Origin: a bacterium
GTDB lineage: Bacteria; Patescibacteriota; Minisyncoccia; JAHIHE01; DAOWLE01
Assembly (NCBI GenBank): GCA_030643545.1
Contig: DAOWLE010000005.1
Coordinates: 1 to 62,430, forward strand
Direction of reading: 5' to 3'
Length of the DNA stretch: 62,430 bases
In this document: piece by piece, positions 1,932 to 62,430 of the stretch
Position numbering within the stretch: the first letter of the stretch is position 1
Layout of the letters: the number at the start of each line of letters is the position of its first letter
Notes under the pieces: model-generated
Databases searched by the model: none
What the model was told of the DNA's origin: nothing
Seen by the model: only the letters and a program-made list of their open reading frames with translations
Position numbers and translations under genes: made by a program

Positions 1932-2524
1932 ATTTTTACATCAACTACCAAAGAATGCGTATGATTTTGGGGAAAAATTTCTTTTATTTTTTCATCGCCG
2001 TATTCCCTTTTAATAATTTCCCTTAACTCAAATTCATATTCTGATCCGACAAAAGAGGAAATACTTTTATGCTCTTCAATCACAAAAAATTTCTCAACTA
2101 AAATATTAATCGTTTTCCAGCTGTATCCCGCCAGCGGCTGGACATAATGAACATCAAATTTGTCTTCAAAACTTCTGATTTCTGAAATGGAAAGAACCGG
2201 AACTTTATCATCTCTTCTGACTCCATCAGAAATTATTTTTGAATTTTTCGCAACTTCCTCTAATGTTTTTTGATGAATATATTTTATTCCATTATTTGGA
2301 AAACCGTCTTTTACTGTCTGATCGGCGGCCTGCTTTAAAATTTCTTCATCCAATTTTAAAATTTTAAAAGGAAAATTTAATTTTTTGGCGACCTCTTCCG
2401 CTTTTTCCCAATTTGAAAGAAGCCCGAAGCTTGTTGTTATCAGCTCAACATCAAAAAAATCCGACAACATTTTTGCCGTTAAACAAGAATCTTTTCCTCC
2501 GCTAAATAAAACAGACGCTTTCAT
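1928..2524 (-). CDS. PP-loop (adenine nucleotide alpha-hydrolase) family ATPase
   Basis: N-terminal SGGKDS PP-loop. 198 aa. Stop overlaps the metG start by 4 nt (operon). Confidence 0.6.
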   Translation of the reverse strand: MKASVLFSGGKDSCLTAKMLSDFFDVELITTSFGLLSNWEKAEEVAKKLNFPFKILKLDEEILKQAADQTVKDGFPNNGIKYIHQKTLEEVAKNSKIISDGVRRDDKVPVLSISEIRSFEDKFDVHYVQPLAGYSWKTINILVEKFFVIEEHKSISSFVGSEYEFELREIIKREYGDEKIKEIFPQNHTHSLVVDVKI

Positions 2525-2594
2525 ATTTTTATTATACCACTTTGACTTGACAAAATCCAGTTATTGTGCTATTTTAACATATTGTGAAAAAAAT

Positions 2595-3725
2595 ATGAAA
2601 ATCGCAATGATTGGACAAAAAGGAATACCAGCTTCTTATGGCGGCGTGGAACGCCACACAGAAGAATTGGCCGTAAGATTAGCCGAAAAAGGACATCGGG
2701 TTTTTGTTTATGCCCGCAATTATTATGTTCCTAAAGAAATTTCTGAATTTAAAAAGATTAAAATTATCAAAATTTCGACTATTCAGTCAAAAAATTTAGA
2801 CGCTATTTGCCATAGTTTTTTATCTTCTTTGGATGTTTTAAGGCGCGATATTGGCATCATCCATTATCAGGGAATCGGCCCGTCTTCTCTTCTTTTGATT
2901 CCTAAAATTTTAAAGCGAAAAGCGAAAATTGTGGTGACTTTTCACACTCGGGATTATCTTAATCCAAAATGGGGATGGTTTGCCAAATTTTATTTGAAGT
3001 TAAGCGAAAAAATAATGATCCGTTTTGCCGACCAGATTATTGTTGTTTCCGAAAATTTGAAAGATTATTGCCAGACAAAATATCAAAAAAAGGTTTGTTA
3101 TATCCCGAATGGAATTTCCCTGCCTATTGAAAATTCTTCTGAAAAAACAGCTGATAATTTTTCTCTTGAAAAAGATAATTATATTTTAACCGTCAGTCGA
3201 TTGGTTGAGCAAAAAGGAATTCATTTTTTGATTGAGGCGTATAATTCAATTTGCCAGAAAAAAATATTGGAAAAAATTCCGCCATTGGTTATTGTCGGTG
3301 GCGCGGTTTATACTAATAATTATTTTAAAAAATTAAAAAAAACAGCCGGTGATAATCCGAAAATTATTTTTTTGGGTTTTCAACAGGGCAAAGAACTTCA
3401 GGGATTATTTTCCAATTGCCTTTTCTTTGTTAATCCTTCGGTTCTTGAAGGACTATCAATCGCTTTGCTTGAAGCGATGAGTTATGGCAAATGCGTTTTA
3501 GTCAGCGATATTCCGGAAAATTTAGAAGCGGTAAATAATGAAGCAGAAAAATATGGAACGGCTTTTGAAAATAAAAATGCCGCGGATTTGGCAAAAAAAA
3601 TAGAATTTTTATTAAGCAATCCTGAATTGATAAAAGAAAAAGGCAAGCAAGCGCAGGATTATGTTTTGAAAAAATATAACTGGGACGAAATTACTTCAAA
3701 AACAATTGAAGTTTATAAGAATTAA
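2595..3725 (+). CDS. GT4-family (GT-B) glycosyltransferase
   Basis: MKIAMIGQKGIPASYGGVERH start and C-terminal PSVLEGLSIALLEAMSYG block. Start moved from 2385 to in-frame ATG 2595 because the upstream part overlaps the PP-loop gene on the other strand. Confidence 0.8.
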   Translation: MKIAMIGQKGIPASYGGVERHTEELAVRLAEKGHRVFVYARNYYVPKEISEFKKIKIIKISTIQSKNLDAICHSFLSSLDVLRRDIGIIHYQGIGPSSLLLIPKILKRKAKIVVTFHTRDYLNPKWGWFAKFYLKLSEKIMIRFADQIIVVSENLKDYCQTKYQKKVCYIPNGISLPIENSSEKTADNFSLEKDNYILTVSRLVEQKGIHFLIEAYNSICQKKILEKIPPLVIVGGAVYTNNYFKKLKKTAGDNPKIIFLGFQQGKELQGLFSNCLFFVNPSVLEGLSIALLEAMSYGKCVLVSDIPENLEAVNNEAEKYGTAFENKNAADLAKKIEFLLSNPELIKEKGKQAQDYVLKKYNWDEITSKTIEVYKN

Positions 3726-3874
3726 ATAAAATACTTTAAAGTTTTTTAGACAACCTTGTTTATTTAATTAAGTATATGCTCCGAAGCTATGCATAAGATT
3801 TCAATTTAATTCTATAAAGAAAATAGAATTTTAGAAATTTTAAAATTGGAATTAGAAAAGTGAAGGAGTATAAT

Positions 3875-3914
3875 AAAAATAGTTCTATAGACTAGTCTAT
3901 AGAACTATTTTTTT
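3875..3914. terminator. bidirectional hairpin terminator
   Basis: Perfect palindrome ATAGTTCTATAGACT|AGTCTATAGAACTAT flanked by an A-run and a T-run, between convergent genes. Confidence 0.6.
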
Positions 3915-3959
3915 GTTGGAAAATTGGAAGGAAGAAAAATTTGTTTGTCTATTGGTTAT

Positions 3960-4664
3960 TCATGTTCGACGATTTACTAAATTTTCTTGATGTGTTCTTA
4001 TCATTTGTTCAGAATAATTATTCCAATTAAAATCTTCAAAAACATTTTTAATAAGTTCAAATCCAACTAATAATGGATTTAAAGATATCTCCTCTTTTTC
4101 AAAATCTTTTCTTGCAATAATTTTATCAATATGACAAATATATTCACTATTAAAACGAAATATTCTATTGCTAAATAATGCTTCTAATTCTCTACCTTCA
4201 GTTTTATTTATTTCAATTGTTAGCACGCCACCTTTAATGTCTATATTTTCAATTATATTTTTAATGAATAATACTATTTCTGTAAATCTATATATTACAC
4301 TTAAAAAATCTAAATATTTACCAACTTCTATTTTTACTCCATTTATGTTACCAATAGTATCTTCATATAAAGCAAACTTTGCTAAAAACTGACCACTTTG
4401 ATAAAAACGAAAAACCTCATAAAATTTTTCTTGAGCAGTATAAAATTCTATAGCATTACCAATAGAATAAGGTCTTTTAGTTTCATCTGAGTCTTGTATC
4501 GGTATATGAGGAAAATTCCAACCGCGAAGACTAACTTGTGATGTTCTTAATATTTCATTTAAATTTTTTTTAGGAATTAAATTTCCATTATAAATATTAG
4601 GCTCAAAAATAACTTTTATATTACCTATACTATCAATTGTTTTTTTTACTTCTTTTATATCCAT
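3960..4664 (-). CDS. hypothetical protein (partner of AlbA_2-like gene)
   Basis: 234-aa ORF, 9 nt downstream of and co-directional with 4674..5324. No motif recognised. Confidence 0.5.
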   Translation of the reverse strand: MDIKEVKKTIDSIGNIKVIFEPNIYNGNLIPKKNLNEILRTSQVSLRGWNFPHIPIQDSDETKRPYSIGNAIEFYTAQEKFYEVFRFYQSGQFLAKFALYEDTIGNINGVKIEVGKYLDFLSVIYRFTEIVLFIKNIIENIDIKGGVLTIEINKTEGRELEALFSNRIFRFNSEYICHIDKIIARKDFEKEEISLNPLLVGFELIKNVFEDFNWNNYSEQMIRTHQENLVNRRT

Positions 4665-4673
4665 AAAAATATA

Positions 4674-5324
4674 TTAAAAATTTTCTCTTTCTTTTTTAAA
4701 AAATGATTTATTTTTTGTTGATTTTTCTGTGTCATGTTTCCATCCTCTATTATGTAAATTTATTATTTGCTTATCAATAGCTCTTTCTAAAAAATCTTGA
4801 ATATCTATTGGGTTTGTTAATTTAACGGACGATGGCTTGTCTTTAAGTGTCCTAATATAAATTGCACCCTCTTCAAGAATTCTATGATTATCTTCTCCAC
4901 TTTTTTTATAATCTCCATTTTTTCTACAAATCAGTGGATTTAAAATAAATTCTGTTACAGCTATCAATACTATGTTTTTTTCCTCCTTTTTTACTTCATA
5001 TTTTCCAATACCAATTTCGTAGTTAACTGGTGAGCTTGAAAAAGATTCAATTTTTGATTTTAAATCTTCTAATTTTGATTTAAAGATAATGAGATGTTTT
5101 TCTTCTATTCCATTAAAACTAAAAGTTTTATTTGTGTCTTCTTTAATACCAATAACAACATAACCGCCACTTCTTGTGTTTGACATAGCTAAAATCGCAC
5201 GTATTAATCTCTCTCTTGCCCATACATTTTCTACAAAATCAAAACTTGCTTTAAATTCAAGGTTTAAATTTTCAGAATTCCCTTCAAGTATTTGTTTAAT
5301 GGAATTTTTGTTTATTTCTTTCAT
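4674..5324 (-). CDS. AlbA_2 / Schlafen-like (divergent AAA) domain protein
   Basis: NLNLEFKASFD....RERLIRAILAMSNTRSGGYVVIGIKED matches the E-F-K ... A-x-x-N-T-x-GG-x-x-x-G pattern I associate with the AlbA_2 domain. Confidence 0.6.
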   Translation of the reverse strand: MKEINKNSIKQILEGNSENLNLEFKASFDFVENVWARERLIRAILAMSNTRSGGYVVIGIKEDTNKTFSFNGIEEKHLIIFKSKLEDLKSKIESFSSSPVNYEIGIGKYEVKKEEKNIVLIAVTEFILNPLICRKNGDYKKSGEDNHRILEEGAIYIRTLKDKPSSVKLTNPIDIQDFLERAIDKQIINLHNRGWKHDTEKSTKNKSFFKKERENF

Positions 5325-5475
5325 ATTTAATTTATTTTATTATAAATACTCTTTCAACGAGAACGAATTTGTAACCTGTTTCTTTTTATTTTGAAATATC
5401 ATAAATATTATTTGCTTGAGAAACGTTAAAAACTATTTACGAAATAGTTTCTGCAAAAAAAATCATCCTCTTTCA

Positions 5476-6270
5476 TTAAATAATAACCGTCATTTTTTCA
5501 TACAGCATTGGCAAGCAATCCTGTCTCATGCGAAATTTAGTTCCATGATTATGACCTGTGCGAGCATCAAAATCCACGAGTATTTTTCCTTCTTCCAATG
5601 CTTCTAAAAATCCATCAAAGCTAAATTTTTGCAACATCATTACTTTTGTGTAATGATAAAATTCTTTTTTACGCCTAACTTCTACTTCAGCTTGCACATA
5701 AAAAGTATTGAGCAACTTTGTTCCAGCTTTATGTTCCAAATCGTTAAAACCCCAATAAGGTTGTGGACTAAGTTCGCCAAGTCCAATATTCTTTTTTACA
5801 AATTTCAGCCAGTCCTTATGTTTTAAATTAACGCTTTTTGAATCAAATGAAATTAAAATTTTCTTTTCCTTGCGATTAACCACAACTTTAAATCCGCGAT
5901 CACTTCTTGAATTGCCATGGATTGTCTGGCGAAAACTCATTTCTCCTTTTGGGTATTTCTTACCGTCTTCTTGGTGAGCCCAGCCGTATAAAGGAAGTAA
6001 AATTTGTGGAACGAAACGAACTGCACGTGGTGACGGCTCCATATGAAAAAGGGTTGTAAGAGATGTTGAATTTAAACGTTGCGCTTTTAATTCCCATTCG
6101 GCGGCGTTTGGAATTGGCAAATTATTTTCTTCAATACCGAGTAAATCTTCTAATGTATTGCCAATTCCGCCATGATTGCCTTTTCGCGCGTTTGGAATAA
6201 ATCCCATGGCAGAAATTTTTTTAAGTTTAGCTATTAAAGCCGGTTTTGTATAAATAGTTGGTTTTACCAT
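5476..6270 (-). CDS. MvaI/BcnI-like type II restriction endonuclease (copy 1)
   Basis: GGIGNTLEDLLGIEENN..P...EWELK...LTTLFHMEP and C-terminal HNHGTKFRM blocks, as recalled for MvaI/BcnI. Starts 2 nt after the MTase 6273..7019. Confidence 0.7.
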   Translation of the reverse strand: MVKPTIYTKPALIAKLKKISAMGFIPNARKGNHGGIGNTLEDLLGIEENNLPIPNAAEWELKAQRLNSTSLTTLFHMEPSPRAVRFVPQILLPLYGWAHQEDGKKYPKGEMSFRQTIHGNSRSDRGFKVVVNRKEKKILISFDSKSVNLKHKDWLKFVKKNIGLGELSPQPYWGFNDLEHKAGTKLLNTFYVQAEVEVRRKKEFYHYTKVMMLQKFSFDGFLEALEEGKILVDFDARTGHNHGTKFRMRQDCLPMLYEKMTVII

Positions 6271-6272
6271 AT

Positions 6273-7019
6273 TTAAAATAGTTTAATTTGTGCTTGATGA
6301 ATTTTGATTCTTTTTTCTGCTGATTTACAATATTTCGGTGAGATGTCAATTCCAATATAATTCCTTTTAAAATTTATTGCCGAGATTGCCGTTGTCCCAG
6401 AACCCATAAACGGGTCTAAAATAACTTTGGCATTTGTTGCAGAAATAATCCTGTCAATTAAATTTACTGGAAAAGGAGCAGGATGTCCATTTTTCATTTC
6501 CTGCGGTATTTCCCAAATATCGCCATAAGCGTTTGCTTTTTTAGCAAGTTTGAATTTCGGTTTAGCAATAAGGTAGATAACTTCGTAAGTCGGCAAAAAA
6601 TAACCAGCGTTAAAATTTAGTCCGCCAGCGCGTTTCCAAATAATAATTTGCCGGACCGGAAAACTATTAATAATATCTTGGCGATCTTGCAATAAGCCGC
6701 CTTGAACGCGCCATTTATGATTATAAAAAATCGCTCCCTCATCCGGTATCAGTCGCATCATTTCAGTTAAGCAATCTCTTTGCCATTTCACATACTCATT
6801 ATGTGGCATATTGTCGTTGTAATGCGAATAACCTTTTTGTAAAGCAGCGTTTGCCCATTTACCACCTCGTCCGTCTTTCATTCCGTTACCAGTAGAATTT
6901 TTAAGATTATATGGCGGTGATGTAACGACCAAGTCAACCGAGCCGTCCGGTATTTTTTTCATTGCGTCAATTGCGTCCTCACAAATGATTTTGTTTATAA
7001 ATTTAGCGATATCTTTCAT
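6273..7019 (-). CDS. beta-order DNA amino-methyltransferase (probably N4-cytosine)
   Basis: Motif IV VVTSPPYN near the N-terminus and motif I DPFMGSGTT near the C-terminus. 248 aa. Confidence 0.85.
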   Translation of the reverse strand: MKDIAKFINKIICEDAIDAMKKIPDGSVDLVVTSPPYNLKNSTGNGMKDGRGGKWANAALQKGYSHYNDNMPHNEYVKWQRDCLTEMMRLIPDEGAIFYNHKWRVQGGLLQDRQDIINSFPVRQIIIWKRAGGLNFNAGYFLPTYEVIYLIAKPKFKLAKKANAYGDIWEIPQEMKNGHPAPFPVNLIDRIISATNAKVILDPFMGSGTTAISAINFKRNYIGIDISPKYCKSAEKRIKIHQAQIKLF

Positions 7020-7130
7020 AGATTAATTATAGCGTAAATATATATTTTAACAAATAGCTTTCGCAGTTTTGTTATTTAGAACGAGACAAATTCCGCGATT
7101 ATTTCAAATAATAAATTCCATTAATTTTTA

Positions 7131-7150
7131 GAAGCATAATGAAGCATAAT
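7131..7150. repeat. perfect tandem decamer GAAGCATAAT x2 in divergent R-M control region
   Basis: Read directly at 7131-7140 and 7141-7150, within the 293-bp intergenic region between the two divergent MTase genes. Confidence 0.9.
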
Positions 7151-7312
7151 TTCGATCTTTACAATTTTTGTTCCAATCTTTTCTTGAATTCTTAGAGATC
7201 TTGTTATGTGAAAAAGTCATTTTTGGACTTTCTATTTATTTTCTAATATGTTATAATTATTATAGCATGTGGATAAATAGAGTCAAGAGGATTAAATTTA
7301 ATTTTAACTATT

Positions 7313-9178
7313 ATGCTTACAAAAAAACAAAAACAGGTTTTGGATTTTATAAGGATATACGGAAGCAAAAAAAAATATGCTCCCTCTCTTGATGAGATAA
7401 GAAAGCATTTTAAACTTGCCTCTGTTTCTACCGCTCATTATTATGTTAAAAAACTTCAAGAAGTCGGACGCTTAAAAAAAGAATATAATCAACCCCGATC
7501 AATTTCTCTAACCAAGGAAAAAGAAACAGTTGAAGTTCCTATTGTCGGAGCAATTGCCGCCGGACAACCGATAGAAGCAATAGAAGTTTCCGATGAGACC
7601 ATTGCGGTAACCAAAAATGAAATTGGCAAATCCGGCAATCATTATGCTTTGCGCGTTCAGGGGAACAGCATGATTGATGAAGGAATTTTTGACGGCGATA
7701 TTGTTGTAATTAAACAACAGCCGACAGCTGATAATGGACAAACAATAGTAGCTATTATTAATAACAACGAAGCAACATTAAAAAAAATCTATCGCGAAAA
7801 AGACAGATTTAGATTACAGCCCGCCAACCCGTCTCTTTTTCCAATCTATACAAAAGAATTAGAAGTAAGAGGAATTGTCGTAAAAATTATTAGAAATTTT
7901 GAAAGACAAATTGAAAGGGAAAAAGCGTCAGACCGTAAATTACAGAGAAGAATTGATTATTCGTGGGATTTTAACGGCGCCAAAACAAAACCATACACTC
8001 ACGGCCTGCATACTTATCCGGCGATGTTTATTCCTCAAGTAGCGCGAAGATTGCTTTTAACATATAGTCAAAAAGGAGACACTATTTGTGATATTTTCTG
8101 CGGATCAGGAACCGCTTTAATTGAAAGCAAATTATTAAATCGCAATTCTTATGGAATTGATTTGAATCCGTTGGCAATATTTTTAGCAAAAGTTAAGACA
8201 ACGCCGATAAATCCGCAATTACTTTCAAAAGAATATATTAAACTTTTAACGAGAATTAATAAAATTAAAAATGTTGAAACAGAAAAACCTCAATTTAAAA
8301 ATCTTGATTTTTGGTTCAAAGATAAAGTAATCATAGAATTGGCTAAAATTAAAAAAGCGATCAAAGAAATTAAAAATAAAAATATTCAAAATTTCTTTTT
8401 AGTTGCTTTTAGTGAAACTGTTCGAAAATCATCTAATACAAAAAACGGAGAGTTCAAATTAGTAAGAATTAAAAAAGAAAAATTAGAAAAATATAATCCA
8501 AATGTATTAGAAATTTTTAAGCGGAAGGCGGAAGCAAACATAAAAGGAATGGAGGAATTTTACCAAAATGCTGATAAAAAATCTTGGACTAAAATTATAC
8601 TTGGAGATTCTTCAAAAAATAATGGCATTAAAGAAAACTCAATAGATTATATTATTACTTCGCCTCCTTATGGAGACAGCAGGACAACCGTTGCCTACGG
8701 ACAATTTTCCCGCCTTTCCGCGCAATGGATAGATATTTTTGATAATCCGGATAATGCCTCTGGAGTAGATAATAAATTGCTTGGCGGCAAAGCAACAAAA
8801 GATTTAATTCATTCTCTTTCTTCAAATTATCTTTTAGAATCGCTAAAAAAAATTGCCAGAAAAGACGAAAAGAGAGCAAAAGATGTTTTAAGCTTTTACC
8901 TTGGACTTAATAGCTGTTTAGCGCGCGCATATAAGATGCTTAAACCTAAAAAATATTTCTGTGTTGTTATAGGCAATCGCCTTGTAAAACAAGTAAGGAT
9001 ACCGACTGACTTTATCATTGCTGAATTAGCTCAAAAAATAGGATTTACTTGCGAAGATATATTTGTTAGGAATATTCCAGGCAAAAGAATGCCAATTAAA
9101 AATTCACCAACAAATATCGCTGGTGAATCAGAAGAAACAATGACAAAAGAAAGTATAGTAATACTTAGAAAGAATTAA
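7313..9178 (+). CDS. LexA repressor fused in frame to an alpha-order DNA amino-methyltransferase
   Basis: aa 1-196 are a complete LexA (wHTH, Ala83-Gly84 in IAAGQP, Ser119 in QGNSM, Lys157 in ATLKK). aa ~215-621 are an MTase with motif I FCGSGT (262-267) and motif IV TSPPY (449-453). No stop between the two halves. Confidence 0.8.
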   Translation: MLTKKQKQVLDFIRIYGSKKKYAPSLDEIRKHFKLASVSTAHYYVKKLQEVGRLKKEYNQPRSISLTKEKETVEVPIVGAIAAGQPIEAIEVSDETIAVTKNEIGKSGNHYALRVQGNSMIDEGIFDGDIVVIKQQPTADNGQTIVAIINNNEATLKKIYREKDRFRLQPANPSLFPIYTKELEVRGIVVKIIRNFERQIEREKASDRKLQRRIDYSWDFNGAKTKPYTHGLHTYPAMFIPQVARRLLLTYSQKGDTICDIFCGSGTALIESKLLNRNSYGIDLNPLAIFLAKVKTTPINPQLLSKEYIKLLTRINKIKNVETEKPQFKNLDFWFKDKVIIELAKIKKAIKEIKNKNIQNFFLVAFSETVRKSSNTKNGEFKLVRIKKEKLEKYNPNVLEIFKRKAEANIKGMEEFYQNADKKSWTKIILGDSSKNNGIKENSIDYIITSPPYGDSRTTVAYGQFSRLSAQWIDIFDNPDNASGVDNKLLGGKATKDLIHSLSSNYLLESLKKIARKDEKRAKDVLSFYLGLNSCLARAYKMLKPKKYFCVVIGNRLVKQVRIPTDFIIAELAQKIGFTCEDIFVRNIPGKRMPIKNSPTNIAGESEETMTKESIVILRKN

Positions 9179-34288: not shown

Positions 34289-35374
34289 TTAAGCCAAAGC
34301 AAGCCCTAATCTGTGTTCTTTTGGCTCAAAAGAAAGTATTTTAAATTTATATTCTTTATTTACTTCAAGCGATTCTCCTTTTTCTTCATCTTTTTTGATT
34401 TCAGAAATATGAACTAATCCGTGTACATATTCATCCAATTGGACAAAAGCGCCAAATTGGTTAATTTTAGTTATTTTACCCTCAACTTTTTGCCCGACTT
34501 TATATTTATCGCCTGCTTTTTCCCATGGATCTTTTTGCAAAGCCCTTAAACTTAATGAAATTTTTGATCCAGTGATATCAATAATTTTTACTTTAACTTT
34601 TTCGCCGACTTTAACAACATCATTAGGATTATCAATCAATTTCCAGTCCAATTCAGAAATATGAACTAACCCTTCCAAATCATCGCCAAATCCCACAAAA
34701 GCGCCAAAATCAACAATTCCTTTAATAACGCCTTCAACGACATCGCCGACCTTGAATTTACTAATACATTCTTTTGTTTTATCTTCTTCAACGGCTTTTT
34801 CTGAAAGGATCAGTTTTTCTCCCTTTTTGTCTATGTCAATAATTTTAACTTTAAACATTTGATTAATATAATTTCTAAGAATGCTTAAAATCTTGTCTCT
34901 GTCTCCGTTTTTTACTCGCGGATAATGCTGGCGCGTCAAATGGGAAACCGGCAAAAAACCAAATATGCCGTTTATTTCAACAATTAATCCGCCCCTGTTA
35001 GCGTCTAATATTTTTGTCGTAAGAATATCTCCGTTTTTCATATTATCTTTCAAGTTTTGCCAAACTTTATCATAAGACGCTTCCCGCAAAGAAAGCTCTA
35101 CATAACCGTCTTCATTTTCCTGTTCTAAAACAGTGGCGGTTATCTTATCGCCTATTTTTAAGTTTTGCGCGGTTCCCAGTCCGTCATTAAGTTCGCGAGC
35201 CATTACAATTCCCGCGCCAACCGGACCAATGTCTATTAAAAGATTATTTGTGCCGATTGACAAAACATTGCCTTCAATTTTTTCGCCGACTTTAGGCAGG
35301 CGAAAAAGATCCTTTGATTCATTAAAGGCCTTTTTCATTTGAGGCGATTTTTTATCGTCTGTTTTTATTGCCAT
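34289..35374 (-). CDS. rpsA: 30S ribosomal protein S1 (four S1 domains)
   Basis: Four repeats of the S1/OB pattern G..V.G.V..I..FGAFV. Confidence 0.75.
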   Translation of the reverse strand: MAIKTDDKKSPQMKKAFNESKDLFRLPKVGEKIEGNVLSIGTNNLLIDIGPVGAGIVMARELNDGLGTAQNLKIGDKITATVLEQENEDGYVELSLREASYDKVWQNLKDNMKNGDILTTKILDANRGGLIVEINGIFGFLPVSHLTRQHYPRVKNGDRDKILSILRNYINQMFKVKIIDIDKKGEKLILSEKAVEEDKTKECISKFKVGDVVEGVIKGIVDFGAFVGFGDDLEGLVHISELDWKLIDNPNDVVKVGEKVKVKIIDITGSKISLSLRALQKDPWEKAGDKYKVGQKVEGKITKINQFGAFVQLDEYVHGLVHISEIKKDEEKGESLEVNKEYKFKILSFEPKEHRLGLALA

Positions 35375-35500: not shown

Positions 35501-35529
35501 TTGACAAACCTTTTATTTTATGCTACAAT
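35501..35529 (+). promoter_or_regulatory. near-consensus promoter P1 (TTGACA-17-TACAAT with TG extension)
   Basis: cTTGACAaaccttttattttaTGcTACAATg. Confidence 0.6.
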
Positions 35530-35570
35530 GTAAGATAAAATAAAAAGATAAATAAATTTAGGAATTGGAC

Positions 35571-35599
35571 TTGACAAGATTTTCAATCTGTGCTATAGT
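35571..35599 (+). promoter_or_regulatory. near-consensus promoter P2 (TTGACA-17-TATAGT with TG extension)
   Basis: cTTGACAagattttcaatctgTGcTATAGTg. About 55 bp around it duplicate P1, including the first ~20 transcribed nt (GTARRATAAAATAAAA). Confidence 0.6.
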
Positions 35600-35703
35600 G
35601 TAGAATAAAATAAAAGACAAAAACTTCTTTTAAAAAATAATTTAGAAATATAAAGAAGAGAGAGCTTTATATATTTATGTAATTATTGTTTTTATAATTA
35701 ATT

Positions 35704-35772
35704 ATAGGCGGCTCTCTCCCGCCCGCAATAATTCCCAAAAGGGATTTAGGCGGGCAAAGAGCCGCCTATTTT
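35704..35772 (+). terminator. long interrupted hairpin plus T-rich tail (terminator or end of an sRNA)
   Basis: ATAGGCGGCTCT-ctc-CCGCC ... GGCGG-gca-AAGAGCCGCCTAT followed by TTTAATTT. Confidence 0.5.
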
Positions 35773-36013
35773 AATTTAGTACTTTGTCAGAGAGAAATAT
35801 GGAGAGGATACCCCGAAGCAATTTTTTGGAAATGCTACAGGGCAAGGAAAAATTTATCCTGAATTAGTGGAGCCGGTGGAAACAAATGCCGCGGGCAAAA
35901 ATTATAAAAAAGATTTTTGCCGATACTGCCTTAATTTTGAAATAAAATAATTCTTCTTCATTTTTCTCTTTAACAAAAAAAAGAGATAGCACATTTAAAA
36001 ACCCCAATTAGAT

Positions 36014-36275
36014 ATGCACTATCTAAACAGGGTAAAAAAGGGAAAGAGAGAAAAATTGCTTCATTGCTAAATAGAAATATTCTCCTAATGAATTAAGGTT
36101 CTAAAATATTTTGGAATTTTGGTTCATTATGGAGAATGGTTTCTCTGTAATAGTTGCAGATTTGTCTATCAAAACAAGGGTGGTCTTATAAGACCATAGG
36201 AGAATGAAAAAAAATGGTAGACGGAAATGTAGTAAGCCTGGTCGGGGGCGAAACCGGTAGTAGTATTCGCGGGCG
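36014..36275 (+). repeat. cassette 5' leader repeat, copy 1 (extends ~60 nt into ORF A)
   Basis: Aligns with 37641..37885, roughly 85-90% identical by eye with a few indels. Confidence 0.85.
36079..36213 (+). promoter_or_regulatory. candidate translational RNA switch, copy 1
   Basis: AUUCUCCUA (36079-87) can pair with decoy UUCAUUAUGGAGAAU (36123-37) or with SD UAGGAGAAU (36197-205). Hairpin TGGTCTTATAAGACCA (36181-96) abuts the SD. Confidence 0.5.
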
Positions 36276-36660
36276 AATGGATTTTGCTCGCATGGAGGCG
36301 GAGAACTTTAAACTTGATCCGCAAGAAATGGAGCGGGTTGAAAAATTGCGAGAGGAAACATCCGGAGTGTATAGTGTTGTTCGATACCCACTTCAAACAA
36401 AGTGGGGAGTAGTCACAGTTGTCAAAATGGAAGCGTATAATGCTTTCGGAGATTACACCGATTATTGGGTGGAATCCGAAGACAAAAACGCTTTAAGAGA
36501 TATTCTGGAGTGGCAAGCAAAGAAGCAGTTAGTAACAAAACCGCAAGAGATTGAAAAGGCCCGTGAGTATATTCCATTGAATCCAGAAAACGGTATGTGG
36601 TATGTATCGTTTTTATGGAAAGGCGAATTCGAGAAATTTGTTGAGGAGGTGAGCGAATAA
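36214..36660 (+). CDS. hypothetical protein A (cassette 1)
   Basis: 148 aa. AGGAGA 10 nt upstream. N-terminal ~19 aa homologous to ORF C. No motif recognised. Confidence 0.55.
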   Translation: MVDGNVVSLVGGETGSSIRGRMDFARMEAENFKLDPQEMERVEKLREETSGVYSVVRYPLQTKWGVVTVVKMEAYNAFGDYTDYWVESEDKNALRDILEWQAKKQLVTKPQEIEKAREYIPLNPENGMWYVSFLWKGEFEKFVEEVSE

Positions 36661-36661
36661 G

Positions 36662-37423
36662 ATGTCGCTCGTAGAGATGTATAGCTCTTACCCCTCCGAG
36701 ATAAAGAGAAATCTGAACTCATCTCGGAGTTCAGGAAACTATTATTTCCTGATGGGAGAAACGATAGACCGCTGGGGACTAAACAATGCCCCTTATGAGC
36801 CGACATTTTCAGTGCGAAGTAAGAAATACTACCGCATTGAAATTCGGAGACGGCTGTTGCGAGAGTTGTATATCGCCGAAATACAGGGGCTTCCCGTCCC
36901 AGTGCCTCGGACAGGTGACGCTGAAGAATTCATCAGGGAGTTCAAAGATCCGGTGATGCTCGCAGTCGGCAACTGCGCTGTAGGACCGAGCGATCTGCGC
37001 GAAGGACTTCATCGGTTTGATGAGGTTTTCGTTTTCGATGCTACGGAAACGGAAGAGGACTGGAGAACAAGGCACGATGCTATGGAAACAGCGAAAGCTG
37101 CGATGGAGTGGATAGGTTCTGAAGATTCGCAAGGCGGATTGTCGTGGACATACGGAAAATTGCGAGAAGGCTCACTGGCACACCAGAAACTTGAACAAAA
37201 AAGGGACGGAGTTCTCTTTAATCACGAAATCGTGTTCGAGTTTGAGGATGAGTGTCCTCTCGGCGTTCAGTGCGACAATGAAGTACTGTTCTGTAACGCT
37301 TCGGGGAAAAGAATTGAATTCGTGATCTATTCGTATGATCACGATACTGTTCAGCGCCGTCTCACACCAGGTCAAGCAATTTTATTCAGTCATCCTTTCC
37401 CGGATGATGGGGAGGTGGACTGA
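36662..37423 (+). CDS. hypothetical protein B (cassette 1)
   Basis: 253 aa. GAGGAGG RBS inside the end of ORF A, 1-nt gap (coupled). No motif recognised. Confidence 0.55.
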   Translation: MSLVEMYSSYPSEIKRNLNSSRSSGNYYFLMGETIDRWGLNNAPYEPTFSVRSKKYYRIEIRRRLLRELYIAEIQGLPVPVPRTGDAEEFIREFKDPVMLAVGNCAVGPSDLREGLHRFDEVFVFDATETEEDWRTRHDAMETAKAAMEWIGSEDSQGGLSWTYGKLREGSLAHQKLEQKRDGVLFNHEIVFEFEDECPLGVQCDNEVLFCNASGKRIEFVIYSYDHDTVQRRLTPGQAILFSHPFPDDGEVD

Positions 37424-37439: not shown

Positions 37440-37615
37440 AAAAACCCGCAGGAGCAAAAACTTCTCGGGTTGAGGTTTTTTCTTTTCCTTTTGAGAAGAG
37501 AAACCAATAAAAAAGCACATTAAAGATAAAAAAATGAGGAAGGAATAGCATTCGTTTCTTCCTCCTCTATTTTTAAGTCCGCAAATATTTTGTGAATTTA
37601 AAAATGCTCTGAACC
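37440..37615 (+). repeat. cassette 3' trailer repeat, copy 1
   Basis: Aligns with 38287..38455. Three hairpins. A partial third copy lies at ~35960..36000. Confidence 0.8.
37536..37574 (+). terminator. intrinsic terminator of cassette 1
   Basis: GAGGAAGGAA-tagcattcgt-TTCTTCCTCCTC followed by TATTTTT. Confidence 0.65.
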
Positions 37616-37640
37616 GTGAAAGGTTGAGAGTAAAATTAAA

Positions 37641-37885
37641 ATGCACTTTTAAAGGGGAAAGAGAAATAATTGCTTCATTGCTGATTAAAATTATTCTCCT
37701 AATGAATTAAGATTCTAAAATATTTTTTGGAATTTTGGTTCATTATGGAGAATTCCGTAATAGTTGCAAGATTTGTCTATCGAAACAAGGGTGGGTCGCT
37801 TAGATCCATAGGAGAAAAAAAGAAAAATGATAGATGAAAAAACAAACCCGACCGGGGGTAAAACCGGAGAAGTAAGTATTGACAA
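37641..37885 (+). repeat. cassette 5' leader repeat, copy 2 (extends ~60 nt into ORF C)
   Basis: See 36014..36275. Confidence 0.85.
37693..37826 (+). promoter_or_regulatory. candidate translational RNA switch, copy 2
   Basis: AUUCUCCUA (37693-701), decoy (37739-53), SD UAGGAGAA (37809-16). SD-adjacent hairpin TGGGTC-gctta-GATCCA (37792-808) keeps pairing through different bases than copy 1. Confidence 0.5.
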
Positions 37886-38288
37886 GCTACTTAAAGTAGC
37901 TGTTGAAGCAAATAAGGGAGAGAAAGAGAAGTTTGATGCAGGACTTAGCGGAATTAAGACCTGCATGAAAATAATAGCCGCGACGACAAATGACTATTAT
38001 CAAAAGACTGACTTTTACACGGAAAGTAGAATCCATGCAAAAGTTAATGTGAATAGTCTTAAGCAACCATCTTTTGGATATTATCCCAAGGGAATTGTTG
38101 ACGGAGATCTTTCTCTTACAAGTAGAGACGGAAAAGTAATCTTCGTCTTTCAAGAGGGAAGTCGCGGAAATGCAAAAAAGGCATGCTGGGGGATTCCAGT
38201 CGAAAAGCTGGATTGCATCCTTGCTTGCAATTTCCTAAAATTTAAAGAGATGATTATAGAATATCTCCAAATTTTGGGAAATCAGTAA
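37827..38288 (+). CDS. hypothetical protein C (cassette 2)
   Basis: 153 aa. AGGAGA 11 nt upstream. Shares M-[VI]-D...GG-[EK]-TG-..-SI with ORF A and then diverges. Confidence 0.5.
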   Translation: MIDEKTNPTGGKTGEVSIDKLLKVAVEANKGEKEKFDAGLSGIKTCMKIIAATTNDYYQKTDFYTESRIHAKVNVNSLKQPSFGYYPKGIVDGDLSLTSRDGKVIFVFQEGSRGNAKKACWGIPVEKLDCILACNFLKFKEMIIEYLQILGNQ

Positions 38289-38455
38289 AACCCGCAGGGT
38301 TCACCCCTCGATTAAGGTTTTCTTCTTTCCTCTTTGGAAAGAGAAACCAATAATAGCACATTAAATTAAAAAAATGAGGAAGGAAAAAGAGCACTCTCTT
38401 TTCCTTCCTCCTCTATTTTTAAGTTTATAAATTTTATTTTGTTGATTTAAAAATA
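38287..38455 (+). repeat. cassette 3' trailer repeat, copy 2
   Basis: See 37440..37615. Confidence 0.8.
38376..38420 (+). terminator. intrinsic terminator of cassette 2
   Basis: GAGGAAGGAAAAGAG-cac-TCTCTTTTCCTTCCTC followed by CTCTATTTTT. Confidence 0.7.
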
Positions 38456-38625: not shown

Positions 38626-38660
38626 AAAAAAAGGCGAGGATATATATCCTCGCCTTTTTT
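38626..38660. terminator. bidirectional terminator (rpsR operon / cassette array)
   Basis: AAAAAAA-GGCGAGGATA|TATCCTCGCC-TTTTTT. Confidence 0.8.
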
Positions 38661-50390: not shown

Positions 50391-50410
50391 GTGGTATAAT
50401 TATTTTTACA

Positions 50411-50448
50411 TTTACGAAGGCGACAATATATATTGTCGCCTTCGTAAA
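50411..50448. repeat. 38-nt perfect palindrome of the GAAGGCGACA...TGTCGCCTTC family
   Basis: TTTACGAAGGCGACAATA-TA-TATTGTCGCCTTCGTAAA, intergenic. Confidence 0.9.
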
Positions 50449-50492
50449 CTTTAATTTATTTTATTTGTTGATAAATATGGCGCGATTATAAA

Positions 50493-51323: not shown

Positions 51324-52615
51324 TGATGTATTATGCAATTTTAATTTTAGGTTTGCTTATTTTAGCAATTCTTTCTTATAAAAAAATTAATCTGGCGATA
51401 GGCATAGTTATTTTAACTTTGCCTTTTTATTTAATCCGTTTGGAAATTTTGTCTATTCCGACAACTGTTTTAGAACTGATGATTTATGTTGTTTTTCTGG
51501 TTTGGATAATAAAGAAACTCAAAACTCAAATTTTCAAAATTTTTCAAATACATAAAGGCGACACGACATCGTGTCGCCTTCGTTATTTTTTAAGCTCAAA
51601 TTTTATATTTCCAATTTTTCTAATTCTCTTTGGATGCATTATTTCAATTATTGTTTCGCCGAACAAGCAAGCCGGACTTGGAATTTTAAAAGGTTGGTTT
51701 ATTGATCCGCTTTTATTGTTTTTAATTATTTCTAATGTTATTAAAACAAAAAAACAAATCATAAAAATTTTATCCTTTTTAGCTGTTTCTGGAATTATCG
51801 TCGCTGTTGCCGGACTTTTTTATTATTTTTTTAACGAGCTCACTTATGATGGAAGATTGAAAGCGTTTTTTCTTTCACCGAATCATTTGGCAATGTATTT
51901 GGCTCCAGCTGGAATTATTTGCTTTGGATTATTTCTTAATTTCAAAAAATATTTCTATCTTTTTGGTTTTATAATCTGTTCAATCGTTATTTTTCTGACT
52001 TATTCTTATGGCGCTTGGATAGGATTTGGCGCAGGTATTTTATTTTTAATTTTCTTTTTTCAAAAAAAAATTGTTTGGCGGAAAAAAGTTTTGCTTTTAA
52101 TAATTGCCGTTTTATTTTTGTCAACAGTTTTCTTTTTCCAGTGCAATACAGAGAAATTTCAAAATTTCACTAATTTTTCCCGCTCGTCTTTTGAATCGCG
52201 GATAATAATTTGGAAATCGGCTGCGACAATTTTGAAAGACCATCCATTTTGGGGAATCGGTCCGGGAAATTTCCAAAATTTTTATTTGGATTATCAAAAA
52301 AAATTCCCACCCTATTTAGAGTGGGCTGTTCCCCAGCCGCATAATTTATTTTTGGCTTTTTATCTCCAGTGCGGATTACTCGGCTTAATCGGTTTTTTCT
52401 GGATAATATTTTTATTTTTCAAAACGAGCATTCGTTATCTGCCGGTTGCCGGTTGCCGGTTGCCGGTTGCTGTGCTAACAGCGGTGATGATTTATATTCT
52501 TATTCATGGATTAGTTGACACTCCGTACTGGAAAAATGATCTGGCAATTATTTTTTGGATTGTTGTAGGATTAATGAAAGTAATCCAGAATGCAGAATTA
52601 AAATTTTCAAAATAA
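51320..52615 (+). CDS. O-antigen ligase (Wzy_C)-like polytopic membrane protein (second copy)
   Basis: More than 10 TM helices. PQPHNLFLAFYLQCGLLG block. 4-nt overlap with the GT2 gene. Confidence 0.65.
   Translation: MMMYYAILILGLLILAILSYKKINLAIGIVILTLPFYLIRLEILSIPTTVLELMIYVVFLVWIIKKLKTQIFKIFQIHKGDTTSCRLRYFLSSNFIFPIFLILFGCIISIIVSPNKQAGLGILKGWFIDPLLLFLIISNVIKTKKQIIKILSFLAVSGIIVAVAGLFYYFFNELTYDGRLKAFFLSPNHLAMYLAPAGIICFGLFLNFKKYFYLFGFIICSIVIFLTYSYGAWIGFGAGILFLIFFFQKKIVWRKKVLLLIIAVLFLSTVFFFQCNTEKFQNFTNFSRSSFESRIIIWKSAATILKDHPFWGIGPGNFQNFYLDYQKKFPPYLEWAVPQPHNLFLAFYLQCGLLGLIGFFWIIFLFFKTSIRYLPVAGCRLPVAVLTAVMIYILIHGLVDTPYWKNDLAIIFWIVVGLMKVIQNAELKFSK
51555..51580. repeat. AAGGCGACACGACATCGTGTCGCCTT palindrome inside the coding sequence
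   Basis: Encodes KGDTTSCRL in frame. Same core at 61666..61690. Confidence 0.9.
52441..52468 (+). repeat. (GCCGGTT)x4 heptanucleotide tandem repeat inside the coding sequence
   Basis: Read directly. Encodes LPVAGCRLPVA. Confidence 0.95.
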
Positions 52616-61314: not shown

Positions 61315-62430
61315 CTACAACACAATTTCCTTCGGCCAATCTGAAACAGTAATATGTTTTTCAACAAAAGGAATTTGCTCCCAAATTTCTTCAGTAATAA
61401 AAGGAATAAACGGATGAAGAAGTTTTAAATAAGTTTTTAAGCAATAATATAAAGTTTGTTGCGCGGCGATTTTTGATTTTTCATTATTATTTCCCAATCT
61501 ATCCTTTGCCGTTTCAATATATTCATCACAAAAATTATGCCAAAAAGATTCATAAAGTTTTTCCAAAGCACGATGAAATTTAAAATTTTCAATATCGCTT
61601 GTTGTTTCTTTAATCAAATTATTTAAATGCTTAAGGATTTTTAGATCGTCTTTATTTTTCGTTTGAAGGCGACACGACATCGTGTCGCCTGCGTTTTTTT
61701 TGTCATTTTTCAAATTCATTAAAACAAACTTTGAAGCGTTCCAAATTTTATTGTTAAAATTCCGAAAATTCTTGCAGCGTTCGTCCATAATATTTTTTGA
61801 AACCCAGATATCCCGGGCGGCGATTGAGTAAGAAACTAAAGTCGCGCGCAAGCTGTCAGTTCCCCATTTTTCAATCATTTCCATTGGCTCAAAGCCGTTT
61901 CCCAATGATTTGGAAAATTTTCTTCCTTTGAGATCGCGCATTGTTCCGTGAAAAAACATATTTTTAAATGGAATCTCGCCGGTGAATTTTTTAGCCGACA
62001 TAATCATCCTGGCAATCCAAAGATATTTTATTTCCGGAGCGGAAATTTCAAAATCAGCCGGAAAATATTTTTTAAATTCTTCTGTCTGTTCTGGCCAGCC
62101 CAAAGTGGAAATCGGCCAAAGCCAGGAAGAAAACCAAGTATCAAGAACCTGCTCGTCTTGTTTTAAATCTTGCGAACCGCAAACCGGACATTTTTCTGGT
62201 TTTGTTCTTGAAACAACAATTCCTTTTTTTTCTTTATTAAAATTTTCTTTATCATCGTTTTCCAAACAATTCTGACAATAATAAACAGGCATCCTATGTC
62301 CCCACCAAAGCGATCTGGAAATGCACCAGTTGTGGATATTTTCTAACCAGTCAGTCAAAATTTCTCCGTATCTTGAAGGATAAAAATTGATTTCTTGATT
62401 TTTAATCGCTTTAATCGCCTCTTCAGCCAA
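61315..62430 (-). CDS. valS: valyl-tRNA synthetase (C-terminal part; N-terminus beyond the window end)
   Basis: DTWFSSWLWPISTLGWP, KMSKS-type KFSKSLGN, Cys cluster CQNC..CPVCG. Confidence 0.92.
   Translation of the reverse strand: MAEEAIKAIKNQEINFYPSRYGEILTDWLENIHNWCISRSLWWGHRMPVYYCQNCLENDDKENFNKEKKGIVVSRTKPEKCPVCGSQDLKQDEQVLDTWFSSWLWPISTLGWPEQTEEFKKYFPADFEISAPEIKYLWIARMIMSAKKFTGEIPFKNMFFHGTMRDLKGRKFSKSLGNGFEPMEMIEKWGTDSLRATLVSYSIAARDIWVSKNIMDERCKNFRNFNNKIWNASKFVLMNLKNDKKNAGDTMSCRLQTKNKDDLKILKHLNNLIKETTSDIENFKFHRALEKLYESFWHNFCDEYIETAKDRLGNNNEKSKIAAQQTLYYCLKTYLKLLHPFIPFITEEIWEQIPFVEKHITVSDWPKEIVL
61666..61690. repeat. AAGGCGACACGACATCGTGTCGCCT palindrome inside valS
   Basis: Sense strand encodes AGDTMSCRL in frame. 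Same 24-nt core as 51556..51579. Confidence 0.9.

Follow-up and report, generated by a model that had tools for sequence, protein, structure and literature searches.

A portable structured 5' leader preceding unrelated genes in a patescibacterial genome, with a possible role in translation initiation

The cassette island and its leaders

The 62,430-nt stretch of DNA analysed here as a whole (the window; positions 1 to 62,430 of the forward strand of contig DAOWLE010000005.1, NCBI GenBank assembly GCA_030643545.1), from a bacterium of the Patescibacteriota (GTDB lineage Minisyncoccia; JAHIHE01; DAOWLE01), contains a 3.3-kb plus-strand island at approximately 35.4-38.7 kb, flanked by an S1-domain gene (34289-35374) and by rpsR-ssb-rpsF, both on the minus strand. 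The island consists of two cassettes, the one with two open reading frames (ORF1 and ORF2, 36214-37423) and the other with one (ORF3, 37827-38288), and each has a similar leader on its 5' side and a similar 3' module with a terminator-like hairpin; the 5' modules are alike between the cassettes over 36036-36265 and 37651-37874. The subject of this report is the leader, in which an earlier note on this DNA had described a three-element switch made of an anti-Shine-Dalgarno (anti-SD) tract, a decoy and the Shine-Dalgarno (SD) sequence. The element strings given there were found where they had been placed in both copies, namely the anti-SD AUUCUCCUA at 36079-87 and 37693-701, the decoy string UUCAUUAUGGAGAAU at 36123-37 and 37739-53, and the SD strings UAGGAGAAU at 36197-205 and UAGGAGAA at 37809-16, as were the hairpins abutting the SD, UGGUCUU/AAGACCA (36181-96) and UGGGUC/GAUCCA (37792-808). 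The features of the leaders are as follows.

36073-36228, plus strand: leader module of cassette 1, homologous in all five versions; 165.8 bits with the covariance model R1
36073-36078, plus strand: 5' purine tract AGAAAU, which can extend hairpin P1 by pairing with 36139-36145 (P1ext, in minimum free energy (MFE) structures)
36079-36087, plus strand: anti-SD AUUCUCCUA, 9 of 9 columns invariant in the five versions
36079-36137, plus strand: hairpin P1, 27 bp with 5 G.U pairs and a bulged U36130, of which the inner 20 bp (36086-36105/36110-36129) are almost invariant
36131-36137, plus strand: decoy GGAGAAU, an SD look-alike on the 3' side of the base of P1, which alternatively pairs with the anti-decoy
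36140-36149, plus strand: CU-rich anti-decoy UUUCUCUGUA, which pairs with 36128-36135 in an alternative hairpin and is also complementary to the SD
36147-36157, plus strand: conserved block GUAAUAGUUGC, unpaired for the most part and invariant in 9 of 11 columns
36161-36171, plus strand: 5' strand of helix P3, pairing with 36215-25
36181-36196, plus strand: hairpin P4, directly abutting the SD, with five different stems
36197-36205, plus strand: SD region UAGGAGAAU, unpaired probability at least 0.94 in the predicted ensemble of the cassette 1 leader
36214-36225, plus strand: start codon (AUG 36214-16) and 3' strand of P3 (36215-25), 11 bp, formed in four of the five versions
37687-37841, plus strand: leader module of cassette 2, with anti-SD 37693-701, P1 37693-753, P3 37772-82/37828-38, P4 37792-808, SD 37809-16 and AUG 37827-29; 154.6 bits

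Five distinct versions of the leader from four sources were compared: those of cassettes 1 and 2 in the window (W1 and W2), that shared by the short Logan contigs L004 and L005, and those of L027 and L030. W1 and W2, approximately 90% identical, are recent duplicates that on their own say little, so the three additional versions carry the weight. L004 and L005 encode an 82%-identical homologue of ORF3 and are syntenic with the window, with one cassette against its two. L027 and L030 are the two true leaders among 29 matches to an exact-pattern scan of JGI metagenomes with TTGGAATTTTGGTTCATTA; the other 27 share just the 19-mer, and most of them are probably from cytochrome b genes, as its translation, WNFGSL, suggests.

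The homology of L027 and L030 to W1 detected by blastn starts at 36069-36075 and ends at 36221-36227, and the distant versions are alike only over this block of about 155 nt, which extends from 4-10 nt before P1 to approximately 8-14 nt into the coding sequence. Its 5' boundary is the basal extension of P1 and its 3' boundary is the end of P3, at codon 4. The flanks and the downstream proteins of the five versions are unrelated, the module alone being common to them. On this comparative evidence the module has been kept as one piece ahead of genes that are not related, and P1 and P4 are RNA structures under selection; folding z-scores of the whole leaders are -8.1 for W1 and -6.2 for W2. The statement best supported by the comparison is that the module is a portable structured cis-acting leader governing the translation initiation, and perhaps the stability, of whatever follows it.

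Other searches yielded no further copy. Comparison of the leader with phage records by blastn gave chance matches only; four pattern scans of viral contigs (IMG/VR) gave no true copy, the six matches of one scan being devoid of the hairpin; and a pattern scan of GTDB genome contigs gave four matches (in Acholeplasmataceae, Chitinophagaceae and Flavobacteriales) that are alike in the pattern alone. A covariance model search of the window and the other loci for further or degenerate copies found nothing above about 30 bits except the reverse strand of P1.

The long hairpin P1

P1 comprises 27-28 bp with 4-5 G.U pairs across the versions. What had been proposed earlier as a 14-bp helix around a separate small hairpin is a single continuous hairpin, in which G.U and A-U pairs join UUAAGG to UUUUGG. 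The accompanying remark that its U-G pairs are possible only in the plus-strand RNA agrees with the folding energies of -24.7 to -33.7 kcal/mol on the plus strand and -13.2 to -18.2 kcal/mol on the minus strand, P1 being about twice as stable on the former. On a structure-aware alignment (A5), 17 of the 18 columns on the 5' side of inner P1 (columns 16-33) and all 20 on its 3' side (columns 42-61) are invariant; on a MAFFT alignment (A3), 21 of the 27 pairs of P1 are invariant and 95.6% of cells are paired. Inner P1 is unchanged between W2 and L004, although 42 of 154 third codon positions in ORF3 differ between them; P1 is therefore under selection for its sequence as well as its structure. 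The near-invariance of P1, set against the covariation of P4, is not explained by a purely structural role and suggests a sequence-specific partner or overlapping constraints.

The basal extension of P1 is built differently in each version (AGAAAU with GUUUCU in W1, AGAAAUAU with AUAUUUCU in L027, AAUAUU with AAUAUU in L004, and GAAAA with UUUUC in L030; W2 has none). That it has been rebuilt in W1, L027, L004 and L030 is an argument for transcription of the anti-SD side. The bulged base is U or C, and L030 has no bulge. P1, which is followed by GGUUUCUCUG or UCCGUAAU, is not in the list produced by a terminator scan; it is not an intrinsic terminator or transcription attenuator, a G+C-rich hairpin with a U-run directly behind it. 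A further hairpin, P2 (UCUGUAA/UUGCAGA), was considered as a conserved element and rejected, only a core of 3-4 bp being left in W2, L027 and L030.

P4, the Shine-Dalgarno sequence and the start codon

P4 and the SD differ in their conservation on A5, with 5 of 20 and 6 of 9 invariant columns, respectively. The compensatory change that the earlier note had read into the hairpin abutting the SD is borne out by the five versions, over which four of the seven pairs of P4 change on both sides (A3); pair counts on A3 include six cells with double changes, against a mean of 2.0 in shuffled alignments, and none of 500 shuffles reached as many. P4 thus covaries and the unpaired blocks at 36147-57 and 36172-80 are conserved, in a set of five sequences that is too small to define an aptamer.

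The favoured fold is predicted to mask the start codon, through P3, a helix that had been missed earlier, and not the SD. P3 covers the U and the G of the AUG; 6 of its 11 pairs vary on one side only with pairing kept, and it is broken only in L030 (A3). The G of the AUG of W1 is predicted to be paired with a probability of at least 0.98.

Two mutually exclusive folds

Two of the versions differ from the others in the decoy itself (GGAAAAU in L004, GGAGAUA in L027), four of its eight columns being invariant, and in L030 the bulge is absent. The decoy and SD regions are near-identical strings, UAUGGAGAAUG and AUAGGAGAAUG. Pairing to the anti-SD is possible in 43 of the 45 cells of the SD helix and in 32 of the 35 of the decoy helix, and either partner is available in all five versions; as the anti-SD never varies, neither of its helices can show covariation. 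The anti-SD:SD duplex, at -11.2 to -12.8 kcal/mol, is stronger than 98.3-99.6% of those formed by dinucleotide shuffles of the upstream leader, and of the 16 genes of the window that have an SD-like motif, the two cassette genes carry the longest upstream stretches complementary to the SD region (9 and 8 nt, against 7 nt or fewer in the others). A hairpin of the decoy with the anti-decoy, first apparent from RNAalifold on A3, can form in all five versions (-3.9 to -8.4 kcal/mol), its pairings being rearranged where indels have occurred; it is stronger than every shuffle in W1, W2 and L030 and than all but one of 300 in L027. Pairing of the anti-decoy with the SD is present in the MFE structure of L030. 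In silico, therefore, the segments that pair alternately, the SD included, form anti-SD:decoy, decoy:anti-decoy, anti-SD:SD and anti-decoy:SD helices.

These pairings belong to two mutually exclusive predicted folds. In fold A, P1 is complete (with its extension) and P3 and P4 are formed, which leaves the SD single-stranded but holds the AUG in a helix; fold B consists of anti-SD:SD, inner P1, decoy:anti-decoy and P4, with the SD paired and the AUG free, and anti-SD:SD is joined to inner P1 and to P4 by zero-nucleotide junctions. RNAalifold returns fold B as the consensus of the MAFFT alignment (-43.7 kcal/mol) and fold A as that of the alignment fitted to R1 (-46.0 kcal/mol), an alignment that leans towards fold A by construction. 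Fold B lies 3.0-7.9 kcal/mol above fold A in one run, and for the module alone 2.7-10.1 kcal/mol above it by default or 1.2-8.1 kcal/mol with coaxial stacking; the difference of 1.2-2.9 kcal/mol in three versions with coaxial stacking makes the two folds near-degenerate there. The switch is structurally available, and it is plausible but unproven. The earlier proposal is supported in part: its alternative pairings are found in every version; the covariation sought among homologues is present in P4 and absent from the anti-SD helices, and fold B is predicted to account for at most 3.6% of molecules at 37 °C.

The upstream reading frame and the 5' end of the RNA

As the earlier note had reported, an AUG within the decoy opens a short upstream ORF (uORF), and an indel puts this ORF in different frames in the two window copies. 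Its view that conservation acts on RNA and not on a peptide gains from the additional versions: L004 has ACG in place of the AUG, L030 has lost it together with the bulge, the frame ends before P3 in L027 and L030, and frames, lengths and stops differ among the versions, so the uORF is not the conserved feature. No SD precedes the uORF, which begins within a 28-bp helix.

The same note had cautioned that a possible promoter, TTGCTT-16-TATTCT, overlaps the anti-SD. This sequence matches the consensus at 7 of 12 positions, compared with 11 of 12 in the clear promoters of this genome. TTGCTT or TTGTTT is found 16 nt 5' of TATTCT in W1, W2 and L004 and has no counterpart in L027 and L030, and its absence from these two weakens the caveat; homology between the distant versions starts only 4-10 nt before TATTCT. 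Other weak candidates are a -10-like xAAAAT/TATAAT after a conserved purine block 5' of P1, with a good -35 only in L027, and TAAGRT inside P1.

Cassettes, cargo genes and neighbouring elements

The remaining components of the cassettes are as follows.

36214-37423, plus strand: cargo of cassette 1, ORF1 (36214-36660, 148 aa, orphan) and ORF2 (36662-37423, 253 aa)
37470-37605, plus strand: 3' cassette module, with a terminator-like hairpin at 37536-64 and a U-run; second copy at 38312-38454
37827-38288, plus strand: cargo of cassette 2, ORF3 (153 aa)

The two 3' modules (37470-37605 and 38312-38454) are 79% identical and share the hairpin GAGGAAGGAA...UUCCUUCCUC followed by the U-run; L004 has one too. 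The GC content of the island ORFs is 0.38-0.49, against 0.336 in the remainder of the window, and all three have a strong SD. An SD-like motif precedes 7 of the 56 long ORFs of the window when the first ATG is taken as the start, three of the seven being those of the island, and at most 16 when the choice of start is permissive. A TAnAwT hexamer ends 3-14 nt before the ATG of 17 of the 56 ORFs, which hints at leaderless mRNAs or mRNAs with very short leaders, although this is weak evidence in an AT-rich background.

The first proteins behind the leader versions are mutually unrelated, and searches of Pfam and PHROG assigned no family to them. ORF1 has no homologue in either protein database searched and no relative among 1.84 billion representatives, and look-ups of the exact proteins of ORF1, ORF3, S1 and S18 returned the same sample only or no match. 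AlphaFold models of ORF2 and ORF3 are too poor for structure searches (predicted local distance difference test scores of 34 and 50). ORF3 is a real gene, to judge from its differences from P0003, which fall 14/12/42 by codon position. The sole distant homologue of ORF2, at 44% identity, is on the mobile-element-like contig L006, which has no such leader; there (1242-8889) it comes after a 48-aa ORF and has as neighbours genes for an HNH protein, Csf1, Csf3 and RAMP proteins (type IV CRISPR-like) and PAPS-reductase/ParB-N genes. This gene context suggests that the cargo derives from mobile elements. The third cassette gene of L027 (minus strand, 3-632) has a weak match to the N-terminal domain of DHH phosphoesterases (E = 1.3e-4, below the Pfam cut-off), and a ParE-like toxin gene (E = 0.003, below the cut-off) with a small upstream ORF adjoins the leader of L030 on the opposite strand (662-1131).

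Other elements lie in the intergenic regions of the island. Tandem near-consensus sigma-70 promoters, TTGACA-17-TACAAT (35501-29) and TTGACA-17-TATAGT (35571-99), both with TG, are followed by an AT-rich stretch and then by a very stable hairpin (35700-35770) with a U-run; the whole (35501-35780) looks like a small-RNA unit of approximately 170 nt, with a fold z-score of -7.0. L004 matches its promoter and first 148 nt at 93% identity and has a different, shorter stem in the terminal hairpin. The 250-nt stretch between this unit and the first leader (35784-36035; L004 284-540) is approximately 80% conserved in L004 and is probably non-coding, as its 22-codon ORF (start 35800) is truncated there. 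A small conserved hairpin, CUCUGAACC...GGUUGAGAG, is found 5' of the second leader (37605-37650) and of the leader of L030 (minus strand, approximately 560-520), and is not found 5' of the first leader; this uneven spread points to mosaic intergenic modules. A perfect 34-nt palindrome (38627-38660) lies between cassette 2 and rpsR. It is a member of a small family of G+C-rich AAGGCGA...TCGCCTT hairpins, which occur also at 50403-50452, 51541-51590 and 61652-61701 and are probably bidirectional terminators.

Proposed function and alternative explanations

We propose, at a probability somewhat below an even chance, that the module, about 155 nt in length, acts as a portable 5' leader RNA complete in itself, which controls the translation initiation of the gene fused behind it, and possibly also the stability of the mRNA. 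The transcript would start upstream of 36073, and P1 with its basal extension would lock away two CU-rich tracts able to pair with the ribosome-binding site, the anti-SD (36079-87) and the anti-decoy (36140-46), by pairing them with the SD look-alike and the 5' purine tract. In the default fold, the SD would be single-stranded beside P4, and the G.U-rich P3 would cover the start codon and throttle initiation; all the P3 substitutions in the four versions that form this helix keep its pairing, in support of this proposal. A second fold, a few kcal/mol higher, would combine anti-SD:SD with decoy:anti-decoy, stack coaxially on inner P1 and P4 with no linkers, and close the SD. Since single-sequence thermodynamics favour fold A, a switch would need an effector, and the flip would require a trans-acting factor, most plausibly one that recognises the invariant inner hairpin. 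The switching step on its own is the least certain part of the proposal and is put forward tentatively. We regard as unlikely the more specific possibility of a new class of effector-driven translational riboregulators, four- or five-segment switches (5' purine tract, anti-SD, SD-mimicking decoy, anti-decoy and SD) with an invariant 20-bp G.U-rich hairpin recognised by a protein, an RNA or the ribosome, that are portable with orphan cassettes into a host mostly devoid of SD sequences.

Several observations weigh against control by such a leader. Only five sequences are available, two of them recent duplicates, and there is no covariation in either anti-SD:SD or anti-SD:decoy. The predicted occupancy of fold B at 37 °C is 1.5-3.6% in W2 and L004 and approximately zero in W1, L027 and L030, and P1 would form first during transcription. 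Purine-rich and pyrimidine-rich tracts pair promiscuously, such that several of the helices could be incidental; P3 is not kept in L030; and no effector is known. No convincing promoter was found inside the shared region.

The main alternative, which is rather less probable, is a static leader that does not switch. P1 would then serve for stabilisation or for processing by RNase III, in a position close to the 5' end or directly at it, and the level of translation would be fixed by P4 and P3. The anti-SD:SD complementarity would be a by-product of the CUCC/GGAG base of P1, the 3' side of P1 having arisen long ago by duplication of the SD region or simply resembling it. A single fold prevails in the predicted ensemble from 4 to 45 °C, the decoy and SD regions are near-identical, anti-SD:SD does not covary, and P1 provides 27-33 bp of near-perfect double-stranded RNA, a length typical of RNase III substrates; cleavage would leave a 5' end capped by the decoy:anti-decoy hairpin. 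A purely structural hairpin should covary as P4 does, however, and yet P1 is invariant in sequence; moreover, P4 abuts the SD complement exactly and three junctions have no linkers, which fits a designed second fold, and the two folds are near-degenerate in three versions. It is improbable that the 5' arm of P1 is promoter DNA (TTGCTT-16-TATTCT or TAAGRT) and that the mRNA starts inside P1 with no anti-SD in the transcript. TATTCT is invariant and keeps the TAnnnT positions, with TTGCTT or TTGTTT 16 nt upstream in W1, W2 and L004; TAAGRT has a weak -35 in all five versions; and cassette 2, coming after a terminator-like hairpin, needs a nearby promoter. Against this stand the lack of a conserved -35 in L027 and L030, where homology starts just 4-10 nt before TATTCT, the 7/12 match, far below the 11/12 of the clear promoters in the genome, the reach of the basal extensions 5' of the anti-SD, and the plus-strand-specific G.U complementarity of the arms, kept in five versions, which would be unexplained if the 5' arm were not transcribed.

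The organisation of the locus in cassettes, where unrelated genes lie between a conserved 5' and a conserved 3' module, and the form of P1, an imperfect palindrome with one extrahelical base, would also suit an element acting as DNA, such as an attC-like single-stranded recombination hairpin or a small mobile palindrome for cassette exchange, the RNA folds being incidental; G.T pairs are also tolerated in single-stranded DNA. This explanation is very improbable: the helix lacks RYYYAAC/GTTRRRY core sites at its base, L030 does not have the extrahelical base, P1 is never found apart from the rest of the module nor dispersed in the 62-kb window, and P3 and P4 tie the module to the SD and the start codon. 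An integron attC site in particular was rejected, the base of P1 being AUUCUCC/GGAGAAU in place of RYYYAAC...GTTRRRY and the bulge U, C or absent. Scarcely any probability attaches to attenuation by a leader peptide, whereby translation of the uORF started in the decoy would remodel the leader; the uORF runs through the 5' strand of P3 in W1 and W2, and in W2 ends just past the main AUG, but the loss of its AUG in L004 (ACG) and L030 (deleted), the stops before P3 in L027 and L030, the lack of an SD and the location of the start inside the 28-bp helix all speak against it.

Relationship to known regulatory leaders

At gathering thresholds, Rfam 15 finds only four tRNAs in the whole window, and the judgement of the earlier note that the leader belongs to no known riboswitch class (TPP, SAM, preQ1, guanidine, ZTP, fluoride and c-di-GMP included) agrees with the lack of any Rfam family match; at E<=10 the leader has sub-threshold matches to hairpins resembling miRNA precursors and to lactis-plasmid RNA (25.3 bits against a threshold of 70). 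The leader is a new RNA motif of the structured, SD-controlling mRNA leader kind. The genes behind it do not form the one coherent pathway expected of a riboswitch, their proteins being unrelated and without Pfam or PHROG family.

SD-sequestering riboswitch platforms, for example the thiM TPP riboswitch of E. coli, use the logic of an anti-SD and an anti-anti-SD. The leader resembles them in that the SD and a rival partner upstream compete for a CU-rich anti-SD, the exclusive folds are a few kcal/mol apart, and a multi-helix junction would be closed by the helix containing the SD; it differs in the absence of a matching aptamer family and a known ligand, in its unrelated orphan cargo, and in that the competitor is an SD look-alike and a second CU tract is a fourth element. 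Translational attenuation of the ermC/cat type also relies on four alternately pairing segments to control access to the SD, and requires a conserved, translated leader peptide. The length of the leader (approximately 140-160 nt) and the dependence of SD access on complementary segments (1:2, 2:3, 1:4 or 3:4) are similar, whereas the uORF is not conserved, no conserved translatable leader ORF being found in the five versions, and the topology is different, segment 1 being able to pair directly with segment 4. Fold-back inhibition of the IS10/Tn10 transposase mRNA depends on an upstream sequence that is complementary to the ribosome-binding site of the same gene, and whose presence in the RNA is set by the start of transcription. 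The leader likewise has a complement to its ribosome-binding site that is transcribed or not according to the start site, but it precedes no transposase and its complement is neutralised by the decoy in a long hairpin.

RNA thermometers such as ROSE and fourU use weak helices, for instance G.U-rich ones, and P3 is such a helix over the start codon; unlike in thermometers, the SD lies outside the helix, and P3 is absent in L030. A thermometer was rejected because the SD is predicted to be unpaired at every temperature and the G of the AUG to be paired with a probability of at least 0.87 up to 45 °C in W1, W2, L004 and L027 and unpaired in L030, which leaves no useful response below 45 °C. In T4-type phages, mobile regulatory cassettes known as PeSLs, small composite terminator/promoter motifs, are short conserved sequences that flank unrelated and mostly orphan genes in a hypervariable region and provide homology for modular shuffling (PMC2839356, PMC4122927). 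The conserved 5' leaders and 3' terminator modules described here likewise flank unrelated, variable cargo; they differ from PeSLs in that the 5' element is a structured untranslated region (UTR), about 155 nt long, whose 3' part extends into the coding sequence, in their location on a bacterial chromosome island between the S1 and S18 genes, and in having no demonstrated promoter.

Implications

A static leader would add another structured 5' UTR to those known and would be of modest significance. If it gates translation, it would be a compact, transferable control module that is independent of the gene behind it, a natural example of the modular regulation of newly acquired orphan genes and a possible part for engineering, and its invariant hairpin predicts a specific binding partner. 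At most about a quarter of the genes in this host have an SD-like motif; against that background a leader gated by its structure and strongly dependent on an SD stands out, and it could report how foreign cassettes are expressed or kept silent there.

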